Positions 21,701-22,553 of a stretch of DNA of 52,035 bases are shown in pieces. Positions within the stretch are counted from its first letter, which is position 1; each line of letters starts with the position of its first letter. The translations under genes were made by a program, and so were the position numbers. This DNA is from an uncultured Candidatus Saccharibacteria bacterium (lineage in GTDB: Bacteria > Patescibacteriota > UBA1384 > XYA2-FULL-43-10), in NCBI GenBank assembly GCA_964389035.1, contig CAYMCH010000001.1, positions 1 to 52,035 of the forward strand, written 5' to 3'. Below the pieces are notes generated by a model. It was given only the letters and a program-made list of their open reading frames with translations, was not told the DNA's origin and did not search any database.

Positions 21701-21838
21701 GAATTCAAAGTAATTTTATACTTGCAAATTTCACTCTGAATTTCCAGAGCAATATTCCAATGTTCCTCCTCGCTTCGCTCGGCGTGTTTTTGTGCGGTCG
21801 CTGGAGGGGTGTGGGGAGGAAACGACCGCACGAGTTTT

Positions 21839-22117
21839 GAAAAACGGGTATAGAATTCGGTAAATCGCGTGGTGGAGGAGCCGATCCCGAACACTCGCCT
21901 TATGGATATCTCGAACTTTTGGGTCACTAATTTTGAACGATTGATATCTGCCGTGCCGGTATGATTTATCGGCAAGTTCGGCATGTAGCACAAGAATATT
22001 GTCCATAAAATTAAGTGAAAATTTAGCTACATCTTTTCGCTTCCTCTTGCCTTTTAAGAATTCGCGCCATGAAATAAGTAAATTATCAACCGATATGATA
22101 TTATTGAAAATATGATG
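21839..22117 (-). pseudogene. Reverse transcriptase remnant (DGR-type), N-terminal ~94 codons only, no canonical start codon
   Basis: A single open frame reads HHIFNNIISVDNLLISWREFLKGKRKRKDVAKFSLNFMDNILVLHAELADKSYRHGRYQSFKISDPKVRDIHKASVRDRLLHHAIYRILYPFF. This follows the N-terminal/finger pattern of Brt-like DGR RTs (..NL..A....GKR......F......L...L....Y....Y..F.I.(D/E)PK.R.I......DR..HHA.....P.F). Similarity stops at ~21839. No palm or YxDD region appears in any frame. Confidence 0.7.
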
Positions 22118-22127
22118 CAGCCCAAAC

Positions 22128-22156
22128 CTCTCTCTCTCTCTCTCTCTCTCTCTCTC
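22128..22156. repeat. (CT)14.5 dinucleotide microsatellite
   Basis: An uninterrupted ctctct... run of 29 nt. Confidence 0.97.
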
Positions 22157-22196
22157 GAGTTGCCCCTCGATCCTTTGCCGAATAAAAGAGGGATAT

Positions 22197-22553
22197 TTGA
22201 TTTGGATTAATTTTGTTCCTCATATCGCTAGAAGTTCTCGATATACCATTGGTCAGCGAATTGAAAATAAGTTTTTAGATTTACTGGAATTATCATACAT
22301 AACCTATTTTAACGATAAAGATAAAAAGAAAGAAAAAATCTCTGAGTGTGTCTTGACCTTGGAGACACTCAAATTCATTGTTTCCATTGCATGGGAAGGC
22401 AAGATCATACCTAATAACAAGTATGAAGAATTGGCGAGAAAACTCGATGAAGCAGGTAAAATGTACGGTGGCTGGAAGAAAAATTTTGATAATCCGCAAA
22501 AAAAACCGCTCATTGTAGCACGGAAAAGAAATACTTTCGAAGACGGAACATAA
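22197..22553 (+). CDS. avd: Avd-like four-helix-bundle protein (DGR accessory variability determinant / S23-IVS family), TTG start, possibly N-terminally truncated
   Basis: ...VPHIARSSRYTIGQRIENKFLDLLELSYITYF...LETLKFIVSIAWEGKIIPNNKYEELARKLDEAGKMYGGWKKN parallels Bordetella phage bAvd (..SIPRKHG.AREMFLKCLLGQVELFIVA...RILGSWIAR). GAGGG lies 6 nt before the TTG. The frame stays open upstream to 22116 (..SILCRIKEGY..) but has no in-frame ATG. Confidence 0.7.
   Translation: MIWINFVPHIARSSRYTIGQRIENKFLDLLELSYITYFNDKDKKKEKISECVLTLETLKFIVSIAWEGKIIPNNKYEELARKLDEAGKMYGGWKKNFDNPQKKPLIVARKRNTFEDGT

Follow-up and report, generated by a model that had tools for sequence, protein, structure and literature searches.

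The 52,035-base stretch of DNA analyzed here (the window) contains a DGR whose RT gene is cut short, whose avd gene lies inverted against the RT, and whose avd and RT frames abut without start codons of their own, which raises the question of whether the locus is an aberrant element in decay throughout, or whether part of what resembles decay is simply how such elements are built. The reading favored here, at a probability of roughly 70%, is that the locus is a Patescibacteria (CPR) DGR of the standard B3 layout that was inactivated in this genome, and that its start-less frames are a clade trait associated with a putative repeat switch, now vestigial.

The locus was compared with genomic and metagenomic relatives, numbered as L-loci; 150 loci with an RT formed the set, and the 146 of these with upstream sequence were used for all counts concerning avd and the avd|RT junction. 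The best RT identity to the window was 86% in the genome scan and 82% in the metagenome scan, and the closest relative, L003, has an intact RT of 333 codons. Two short contigs, L163 (Logan SRR29243433) and L164 (Logan SRR8925826), were additionally obtained by exact-protein look-up; exact look-ups of the 475-aa target ORF and the 91-aa RT ORF gave no match. All coordinates given in the earlier note held on re-check, and the minus-strand order is target-VR, a 346-nt spacer, TR, avd on the opposite strand, a (CT)n tract, and the RT remnant. The inverted Avd, previously taken as a non-canonical architecture, is normal for the lineage: avd is divergent (head-to-head) from RT in all 146 related loci, and the window has the TR, opposite-strand avd, and RT on the TR strand that define architecture B3 (PMC5758913, Fig. 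5 legend), TR-(avd)-RT, the layout of 90% of CPR DGRs (Wu et al., 2018, PMC5758913). The inverted Avd does not point to decay; the head-to-head arrangement is a feature of the clade, as the absence of in-frame starts probably is as well.

The Avd-like ORF (TTG at 22197 to 22553, plus strand) scored 55.6 bits against Pfam bAvd (PF22296; gathering score, 40) and 59.8 bits, short of the cut-off of 80, against NCBIfam DivGenRetAVD, and its product is 84% identical to the L003 Avd. The TR (22538-22669, minus strand) and the VR at the 3′ end of the target gene (23016-23147, minus strand) are each 132 nt long and differ at 24 positions, 19 of them among the 42 TR adenine positions (79% of the differences), the pattern that characterizes DGRs, and five elsewhere (three C>A, one G>T, and one T>C). 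These five non-adenine mismatches had been read as fitting a cassette that has stopped homing, and they do place the locus among the highest ∼9% when set against 80 relatives whose RTs are intact (median, 1), but alone they say little: L003, with its RT intact, has four non-adenine mismatches plus four gap positions, and thus more non-adenine differences, so the mismatches do not date the inactivation. Likewise, the 16-nt overlap between the 3′ ends of TR and Avd is present as described (22538-22553) but occurs in intact loci too, so it is not specific to decay. The target gene (22994..24875, minus strand) is interrupted by a frameshift in an A8 run (24585-24592), which leaves a 106-aa ORF (24875-24555) and a 475-aa ORF (24421-22994), the last 45 codons of which contain the VR; tblastn with the L003 (619 aa) and L005 (658 aa) targets switches frame at ∼24585-24604, showing the gene to be frameshifted relative to its 619-658-aa homologs. 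A Pfam search recognized no domain in the target. Beyond the window, the A8 frameshift was seen only in L164 (Logan SRR8925826), which is identical to the window and possibly derives from the same sample. The split of the target gene had not been mentioned in the earlier note.

The RT remnant (21841..22117, minus strand) comprises about 92 N-terminal codons (FGLHH...ILYPFF) with 86% identity to the L003 RT. A protein search with the RT-like frame (22117 to ∼21841) matched 454 RT-like proteins at up to 80% identity. It was confirmed that this frame has no ATG, GTG, or TTG start, that similarity is lost after ILYPFF, and that the palm region is missing: tblastn with a full-length relative RT against all 52,035 bases recovered the N-terminal part only, with no C-terminal or palm segment anywhere in the window. 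Of the profile searches that the earlier note had proposed for the two ORFs, Pfam placed Avd above its gathering score, as reported above, and gave no RVT_1 match; in L003, RVT_1 spans residues 70-274. The GNLTSQ and YADD motifs present in the RTs of relatives are gone, and the ∼92 remaining N-terminal codons fall short of an intact DGR-type RT.

The missing part was lost by deletion. In blastn alignments, window positions 21840-23830 match L003 3477-1423, and positions 21790-21841 match L003 4274-4224, just past the L003 RT stop at 4192, so that the two blocks abut at 21840..21841 and about 746 bp (L003 3478-4223) are missing. The junction, which carries a short T-rich microhomology, joins RT codon ∼96 to a conserved hairpin element normally found just 3′ of the RT stop, and the alignments of every relative stop at 21834-21844. 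This ∼746-bp deletion removed RT codons ∼97-333, comprising the fingers, palm, and thumb with the GNLTSQ and YADD motifs. The suspicion of a decaying cassette was therefore well founded as far as the RT deletion and the frameshifted target are concerned. A group II intron or other insertion splitting the RT, brought to mind by the resemblance of GTGCG at the break to an intron 5′ end, was ruled out by the lack of an RT C-terminus in the window, the lack of an Rfam match, and the homology of the sequence past the break to the region 3′ of the L003 RT. It was also considered that RTs of this clade are naturally short or split, given matches of only 98-211 aa in the first protein search, and this was ruled out by RT ORFs of at least 300 codons in 134 of the 150 related loci; the short matches appear to reflect the candidate collection of that search. 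RT damage of a similar kind occurs in about 10% of the relatives, and the window locus taken alone is an ordinary dead DGR copy.

A truncation produced in assembly, whether by a chimeric join or a collapsed repeat concealing a full-length native RT, is extremely improbable. Assemblies often fail or go astray at DGR repeats and flanking inverted repeats, and contig L164 indeed ends inside the TR; the junction, however, is identical in the independent Logan assembly L163 (SRR29243433), and is thus not a misassembly. That contig, from another sequencing run, is colinear with the window across the tRNA-Pro, hairpin, junction, RT stub, repeat, avd, TR, and VR, and differs only in repeat length and two SNPs in 2.7 kb, one of them a new non-adenine change in the TR (99.9% identity apart from the repeat). 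Furthermore, the junction sequence is unique, the flanking inverted repeat is here only 45 nt long at 84%, and comparable RT deletions are found in relatives L104 and L109.

Beyond the break lies the conserved RT-3′ element (21790..21841, minus strand; stem, 21792-21800 / 21823-21831), which is 92% identical to L003 4224-4274. The 9-bp GC inverted repeat reported earlier was found at these stem positions and folds in the RT sense into an 11-bp stem with an 18-nt loop (z = -2.8), but it is not tied to the break as had been supposed: the element stands just 3′ of the intact RTs of L003, where it begins about 30 nt past the RT stop, and L083. A role of the hairpin as an intrinsic terminator was ruled out, as it has no U-tract in the RT sense and was not called by a terminator scan. 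Next to the cassette is a tRNA-Pro(GGG) (21574..21650, plus strand; ARAGORN and Rfam); the L003 cassette has the same tRNA and adjacent repeat, but at the target-gene end. A decayed inverted repeat brackets the whole cassette, its 45-nt left arm (21662..21706) being 84% complementary to the right arm (25062..25106), and this repeat is homologous to the 190-nt, 99% inverted repeats of the L003 DGR. As a clade-wide feature these repeats were rejected, since they are absent from L002, L005, L008, L013, L016, and L046; they are specific to the L003/window lineage.

With the local RT lost, the TR, VR, and Avd might still function if an intact DGR RT elsewhere in the genome serviced them in trans, the stub being irrelevant. 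This is improbable, even though the TR, VR, and Avd body are intact, 19 of the 24 TR/VR differences fall at adenines, and CPR MAGs with two DGRs of this RT clade exist (L004 and L023, L011 and L019, L026 and L034, and L055 and L068). The 52-kb window has no such RT, the target is frameshifted, and neither tract allele (29 nt or 21 nt) places avd in frame with its predicted ATG. The VR is identical in the window, L163, and L164, and hence in two samples that differ by two SNPs and 8 nt of repeat, the TR meanwhile having gained its new non-adenine change. In the Bordetella phage system, the DGR RT/Avd recognizes RNA flanking its own TR, which likewise speaks against service in trans.

The start-less frames probably have a different explanation, and it begins with the repeat between them. 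The simple-sequence repeat (CT)14.5, or (GA)n on the RT-sense strand, occupies 22128..22156 (29 nt), between the predicted ATG and the conserved body of each gene. A repeat is present at the same position in 132 of the 146 related loci, as poly-G (G6-13; mode, 9-10), (GA)n (11-40 nt), or (TG)n (17-27 nt), always G-rich on the RT-sense strand, and about 120 repeats were counted in avd|RT gaps versus about seven elsewhere in 1.15 Mb. Tracts of contingency loci have about eight or more mononucleotides or five or more dinucleotide units in a 5′ coding or promoter position, as does (CT)14.5, and they vary in length between otherwise identical genomes, as was observed here across assemblies. The tract of this locus is 29 nt long in the window and 21 nt in L163, and loci that are otherwise nearly identical show no indel difference other than repeat length. 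Five poly-G clusters with 500-nt flanks of 99.6-100% identity differ by one G, three of them toggling between in-frame and +1, although a difference of one nt in a G9-G11 run between assemblies may also come from faulty sequencing or assembly. Survey papers on DGRs (PMC5758913, PMC8144416) leave a tract at the avd|RT junction unmentioned (Paul et al., 2017, PMC5436926, lay outside this comparison), and it seems that no DGR with such a repeat-tract switch has been described.

The start codons proposed here, and the ON or OFF effect of tract length, are read from the sequence alone. The avd gene (22112..22553, plus strand) would start at an ATG antisense to the conserved His codon of the RT (22112/22115 in the window, opposite the RT His-His codons), run through the repeat, and continue into a body whose frame extends from 22155 to the stop at 22553; here, the body is 3n+1 nt out of frame with that ATG, whereas 13 of 14 repeat-less loci (8/9 clusters) have the antisense-His ATG in frame. 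No RT start follows the repeat in the (GA)n subclade, but all (GA)n loci have a conserved upstream ATG whose frame stays open as far as the repeat, and in this subclade, including the window, the RT may start at this ATG, which lies across the repeat and antisense to a His codon of Avd. The predicted RT leader of the window (22118..22223, minus strand; ATG, 22223-22221) reads through the repeat, and its frame is offset from that of the RT body by 3n+1 nt. An open antisense frame was seen in 19/19 (GA)n loci versus 20/88 poly-G loci, and the antisense-stop codons TTA, CTA, and TCA account for 0/79 in avd codons 1-23 versus 78/279 (28%) in the rest of avd (p = 2.5e-10), counts that come from related loci and are thus not fully independent. 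A continuous 362-aa RT ORF and a 136-aa in-frame avd, overlapping by 114 nt, are found in L035. The predicted N-termini read MxQLNFH...PPP for Avd and MR(N/D)...QISLFD...(ER)n for the (GA)n-type RT. With both starts placed beyond the repeat, the two ORFs would overlap head-to-head by about 110 nt, so that a single repeat length would set the frame of both.

On this basis, slipped-strand mispairing could switch the mutator on and off. The (CT)14.5 tract would leave both ORFs one nt out of frame, the OFF state, and adding one unit or removing two would bring both back into frame. With the RT deleted, the switch would be vestigial here. The proposal that avd and RT, overlapping in antisense at their 5′ ends, share one hypermutable tract that works as a translational phase switch in both directions, toggling DGR hypermutation stochastically, with the window as a vestigial copy behind an RT deletion, is tentative, and its chances are put a little below even. 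The (GA)n loci are uniformly distributed among the three frames (5/6/8), which implies that intact elements were mostly captured OFF; a repeat without a coding role would give the same uniform pattern. Poly-G loci have a 60% excess in the state with one extra nucleotide (3n+1; p = 3e-6), which could point to programmed frameshifting or transcriptional slippage rather than DNA-level switching. As for the start-less, abutting open frames (22117/22116) that had been listed among the signs of decay, they are present but not decay-specific, since (GA)n relatives with intact RT ORFs look alike when the tract is out of phase.

Two other accounts of the tract were weighed. It could be a recoding site, at which +1/-1 ribosomal frameshifting on CCC-C or transcriptional slippage yields Avd, or a spacer that tunes divergent promoters. 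Recoding would accommodate the 60% of poly-G loci in the 3n+1 state, correctable by a +1 shift on poly-C, but no conserved stop codon or other stimulator follows the C-run. A spacer would agree with a poly-G tract situated 13-30 nt upstream of the RT ATG, and promoter-spacer repeats at such positions are known from Neisseria porA/opc and Haemophilus hifA/hifB. Either could also explain why L006 and L084 share the same 18-nt repeat in adjacent sequence that is only ∼80% identical. Both nevertheless seem unlikely in light of the uniform (GA)n frames, the occurrence of ON and OFF alleles among otherwise identical loci, and the avoidance of codons that would close the antisense ORF in (GA)n loci, which argues for translation through the tract. 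Poly-G as a Shine-Dalgarno sequence for the RT was rejected, since 13-30 nt from the ATG is too far.

That the tract is functionless, a by-product of a G-rich or Pro-rich junction, and that the start-less frames of the window reflect true decay of avd and RT, is very improbable. Random frames in (GA)n loci would fit this account; the retention of a tract at the same position in 132/146 loci, across RT identities of about 64-86% to the window RT, does not, nor does the use of three different repeat units with the same strand polarity always. The concentration of about 120 repeats in short gaps, against about seven in the remaining 1.15 Mb, also argues against it, as do the in-frame state of 13/14 repeat-less loci and the full-length RT and avd bodies that most tract-bearing loci keep.

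The start-less frames of this dead copy thus point to a rule in about 90% of 146 related CPR DGRs, namely a slippage-prone repeat exactly at the beginnings of avd and RT. For annotation, this means that in OFF-phase loci avd and RT are cut short or overlooked by gene callers. A switch, if real, would account for the way in which organisms with very small genomes keep a targeted mutator affordable: at a given moment, only part of the population would be mutating. The scoring of DGR activity in metagenomes, where DGRs considered inactive may be in the OFF phase, would gain a second layer as well, and the switch would be a rare case of one repeat framing two antisense-overlapping genes.

Among known systems, the closest are the CPR DGRs of architecture B3 (PMC5758913), or DGR clade 2 (Roux et al., 2021, PMC8144416), in which target-VR, TR, reverse-strand avd, and RT have the same order and orientation. 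The window shares with them a bAvd-family accessory gene and a VR at the target C-terminus, and its RT N-terminus shares 64-86% identity with the RTs of Patescibacteria MAGs; unlike them, it lacks about 70% of the RT length and has a frameshifted target. The BPP-1 Bordetella phage DGR (mtd-avd-TR-brt) has the same four components and adenine-specific TR-to-VR differences, and the last ∼20 nt of TR and VR are identical in the window, as with the IMH. In BPP-1, however, the genes are all co-directional with avd upstream of the TR, there is neither a repeat tract nor an antisense overlap of avd and RT, and the GC inverted repeat follows the VR, whereas in the window avd is inverted and the hairpin follows the RT. 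Contingency loci, such as the poly-G genes of Campylobacter and Neisseria and Haemophilus hifA/hifB, resemble the present tracts in having, at the gene 5′ end, runs of 8-11 mononucleotides or 5-20 dinucleotide units and in being polymorphic in length between otherwise identical strains, and the (TA)n of hifA/hifB similarly serves two divergent genes with one tract. The hif tract sets promoter spacing, whereas the DGR tract seems to be embedded in two coding regions that overlap in antisense, and to determine the frame of each; the regulated function would here be a targeted mutator, and the hosts are non-pathogenic environmental CPR bacteria. Phasevarions, based on phase-variable DNA methyltransferases, likewise place a stochastic repeat switch atop a system that changes many phenotypes, but they act by methylation-based regulation, whereas the system proposed here would act by RT-driven hypermutation of one target gene.

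The comparison set comprised 162 diversity-generating retroelement (DGR) loci, 2 from an exact-protein look-up, 80 from species-representative genomes, and 80 from metagenomes; the genome labels were nearly all CPR/Patescibacteria groups, with a few automatically assigned other names. In all 146 loci having sequence upstream of the reverse transcriptase (RT) gene, RT and the accessory variability determinant gene (avd) lay head-to-head on opposite strands, and this layout, architecture B3 or “TR-(avd)-RT”, represents 90% of Wu et al.'s CPR set (PMC5758913). The inverted Avd-like gene that the earlier note had read as a sign of decay is therefore the norm, and the overlap of the template repeat (TR) with the Avd 3′ end, mentioned there as well, also occurs in intact loci (e.g., L031, L121, and L110).

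Between the conserved Avd and RT N-termini, 132 of the 146 loci had a simple-sequence repeat. It was poly-G (G6-13, mode 9-10) in 107 of them, (TG)n in 3, and (GA)n in 22, where it spanned 11-40 nt; the window and its nearest relatives belong to this (GA)n group. The G-rich side was on the RT-sense strand in every case. Across 1.15 Mb of locus sequence, ∼120 such repeats fell in avd|RT gaps, 13 more lay directly upstream of RTs at contig edges, and ∼7 were truly elsewhere. Extra G8-G10 runs outside the gap, possibly in target genes, were seen at L010 1576, L069 3285, and L052 8609. Some MAGs carried two DGRs of this RT clade (L004 and L023; L011 and L019; L026 and L034; L055 and L068), one of them with two repeat types, (GA)n in L004 and poly-G in L023. 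In three loci, an insertion of ∼115 nt bounded by terminal inverted repeats lay between the tract and the RT start (L025 ∼2390-2500 and L093 ∼3870-3990, with ends CCCTGTTAGAAAT...ATCTAACAGGG; L050 ∼5880-5990, with ends CCCCGTTAGAAAT...ATTTCTAACGGGG), which looks like a miniature mobile element.

The conserved RT His codon CAT (in MKIQLxH or FGLHH) is an ATG on the opposite strand, and because 13 of the 14 repeat-less loci, or 8 of 9 clusters, have this ATG in the avd frame, mostly at a constant 45 nt, it is very likely the avd start. Given that start, the tract would fall at about avd codons 14-17, with poly-C encoding Pro-Pro-Pro and (TC)n encoding (Leu-Ser)n. Poly-G loci have an RT ATG of their own past the tract, whereas the (GA)n subclade has none there; a conserved ATG across the tract, antisense to the His codon of Avd “PH(I/M)” (22223 in the window), is instead the putative RT start, its frame open as far as the tract and its phase to RT equal to the avd phase wherever both could be scored. 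Missing starts, another proposed sign of decay, are thus probably a property of the (GA)n subclade. The codons TTA, CTA, and TCA are stops when read on the opposite strand. Among 19 dereplicated (GA)n loci, none of the 79 Leu/Ser codons in avd codons 1-23 was one of these three, in contrast to 78 of 279 over the remainder of those genes (p = 2.5e-10); the corresponding region of poly-G loci had 119 of 407. The antisense frame was open in 19/19 (GA)n loci versus 20/88 poly-G loci and, judging from these sequences, is actively maintained open in the former. In L035, with both genes in phase, a 136-aa avd ORF (MMVNMPKPFYSLSLSLENYSILKRIKEGY...) and a 362-aa RT ORF (MRNNSKPQQISLFDSFQNRIVFERERERVKRFGHIY...YADD...) overlap head-to-head by 114 nt, spanning the repeat. 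In poly-G loci, the first 21 nt of RT (ATG AAA ATT CAA TTG nnn CAT; e.g., L078 5989-6009) are quasi-palindromic, giving M-K-I-Q-L-x-H for RT and M-x-Q-L-N-F-H for avd on the other strand, and the ATG of each gene is the His codon of the other.

Tract length varied between otherwise near-identical loci. In five clusters with 500-nt flanks 99.6-100% identical, a one-G difference in the run was the only one (L024 vs. L103/L105; L042 vs. L152; L106 vs. L131; L108 vs. L112/L117; L141/L149/L154 vs. L153), and in three of these one allele was in frame and the other +1. The repeat was also the sole indel between the window (29 nt) and L163 (21 nt, four CT units fewer), a contig of the same locus from Logan SRR29243433. 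Cluster-weighted frames were uniform in (GA)n loci (5/6/8) and skewed toward one extra nucleotide in poly-G loci (15.4/48.3/17.3, p = 3e-6), where the avd ATG was exactly one nucleotide off frame in 60% (cluster-weighted 48.3/81); 25 of 32 G10 runs were in this state. To us the skew suggests a switch with two states, caught mostly in OFF(+1), but programmed +1 ribosomal frameshifting on CCC-C (poly-C) or transcriptional slippage would account for it as well; other candidates are an OFF(+1) resting state favoured by selection and an AUU start conserved in the one-nucleotide-off frame. With the (CT)14.5 tract of the window (22128-22156), the avd ATG (22112/22115) and the RT ATG (22223) are each 3n+1 nt from the frame of their gene, as a check by hand confirmed; both ORFs would come into frame with a gain of one CT unit or a loss of two, and the L163 allele represents the other OFF phase. 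The phase of the window tract is irrelevant now, because its RT has been deleted.

A conserved, length-variable repeat within the overlapping avd and RT 5′ ends throughout the clade finds its simplest explanation, as a reading of sequence, in a phase-variation switch acting on the mutator. The data show tract conservation, position, strand polarity, and length polymorphism, codon avoidance, and the existence of alleles with both ORFs in phase; under such a switch, tract length would set the ON or OFF state from the predicted starts, and the phase would in turn affect mutagenesis. No mention of an avd|RT repeat tract was found in the searchable literature, which does not include Paul et al. (2017), the main CPR DGR paper. 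This clade-level tract is of more interest than the dead copy in the window.

The window RT is cut short, as the earlier note had held. Its DGR-type N-terminal frame (minus strand, 22117 to ∼21841; 454 homologues, top identity 80%) contains no ATG, GTG, or TTG, similarity ends after ILYPFF, and tblastn with a full-length relative as query found no further RT segments in the 52-kb window. The nearest relative, L003 (86% RT identity), has an intact RT of 333 codons with an RVT_1 domain. Window 21840-23830 aligns with L003 3477-1423, and window 21790-21841 with L003 4274-4224 (92% identity), a segment starting ∼30 nt past the L003 RT stop; since these blocks abut while L003 3478-4223 has no counterpart, ∼746 bp are missing, equivalent to RT codons ∼97-333 and a few bases of 3′ flank. 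Short, T-rich microhomology is seen at the junction (21840/21841), and every alignment with six further relatives ends at 21834-21844. The GC hairpin, previously assigned to the break, is a conserved element normally 3′ of RT, as in L003 and L083. An RT ORF of at least 300 codons was present in 134 of the 150 relatives with a stop-terminated RT ORF, and the remainder had RTs with frameshifts, insertions, or deletions; the L104 RT has an internal deletion, and that of L109 retains residues 1-99 only. L163, from a separate run and assembly, is colinear with window 21341-24048 and has the identical junction, so the truncation is not a product of assembly. Upstream of tRNA-Pro, ∼790 nt (20784-21573) lack any ORF of at least 60 aa or Rfam match, unusually long given a compact CPR-type genome; the portion from 21341 onward is unchanged in L163.

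All coordinates in the earlier note were reproduced, including the 346-nt spacer, the GC inverted repeat, and the 16-nt TR/Avd overlap. The TR (22538-22669) and its paired variable repeat (VR, 23016-23147), both 132 nt and sense on the minus strand, differ at 24 positions, 19 at TR adenines and 5 at other bases. The plus-strand ORF ending at 22553 was upheld as Avd by Pfam bAvd (55.6 bits, gathering score 40); against NCBIfam DivGenRetAVD it scored 59.8 bits, under the cut-off of 80. The five non-adenine mismatches, taken earlier to fit a cassette that has stopped homing, are high relative to 80 loci with intact RTs (median 1; none in 38%; at least five in 9%) but not decisive, because L003, with an intact RT, has four plus four gap positions. 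The window and L163 have identical VRs despite SNPs at TR 22654 (a new non-adenine mismatch) and target 23269, outside the VR, which weakly favours a frozen VR over service in trans. Target homologues comprise one ORF each (619-658 aa); the frame of the window target changes within an A8 run (24585-24592, minus strand), leaving ORFs of 106 and 475 aa. The frameshifted sequence recurs in a contig from Logan SRR8925826 that matches the window at 100% identity and may be from the same sample, so that the frameshift is known solely from sequence identical to the window; the run itself could be a site of reversible slippage rather than a fixed lesion.

In L003, 190-nt inverted repeats (93-282 and 4234-4423, 99% complementary) bracket the whole DGR cassette, and the end of the contig holds a third copy of 55 nt. 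In the window, only decayed remnants of these persist (21662-21706/25062-25106 and 21773-21789/24973-24989), and six other loci examined had no flanking inverted repeats. Relative to the shared tRNA-Pro, the window and L003 cassettes have opposite orientations, suggesting an inversion through recombination of the repeat arms. The proposed decay of the cassette holds, through different signs in part: the window element is of a known kind, a CPR DGR of architecture B3, dead through RT deletion and target frameshift.
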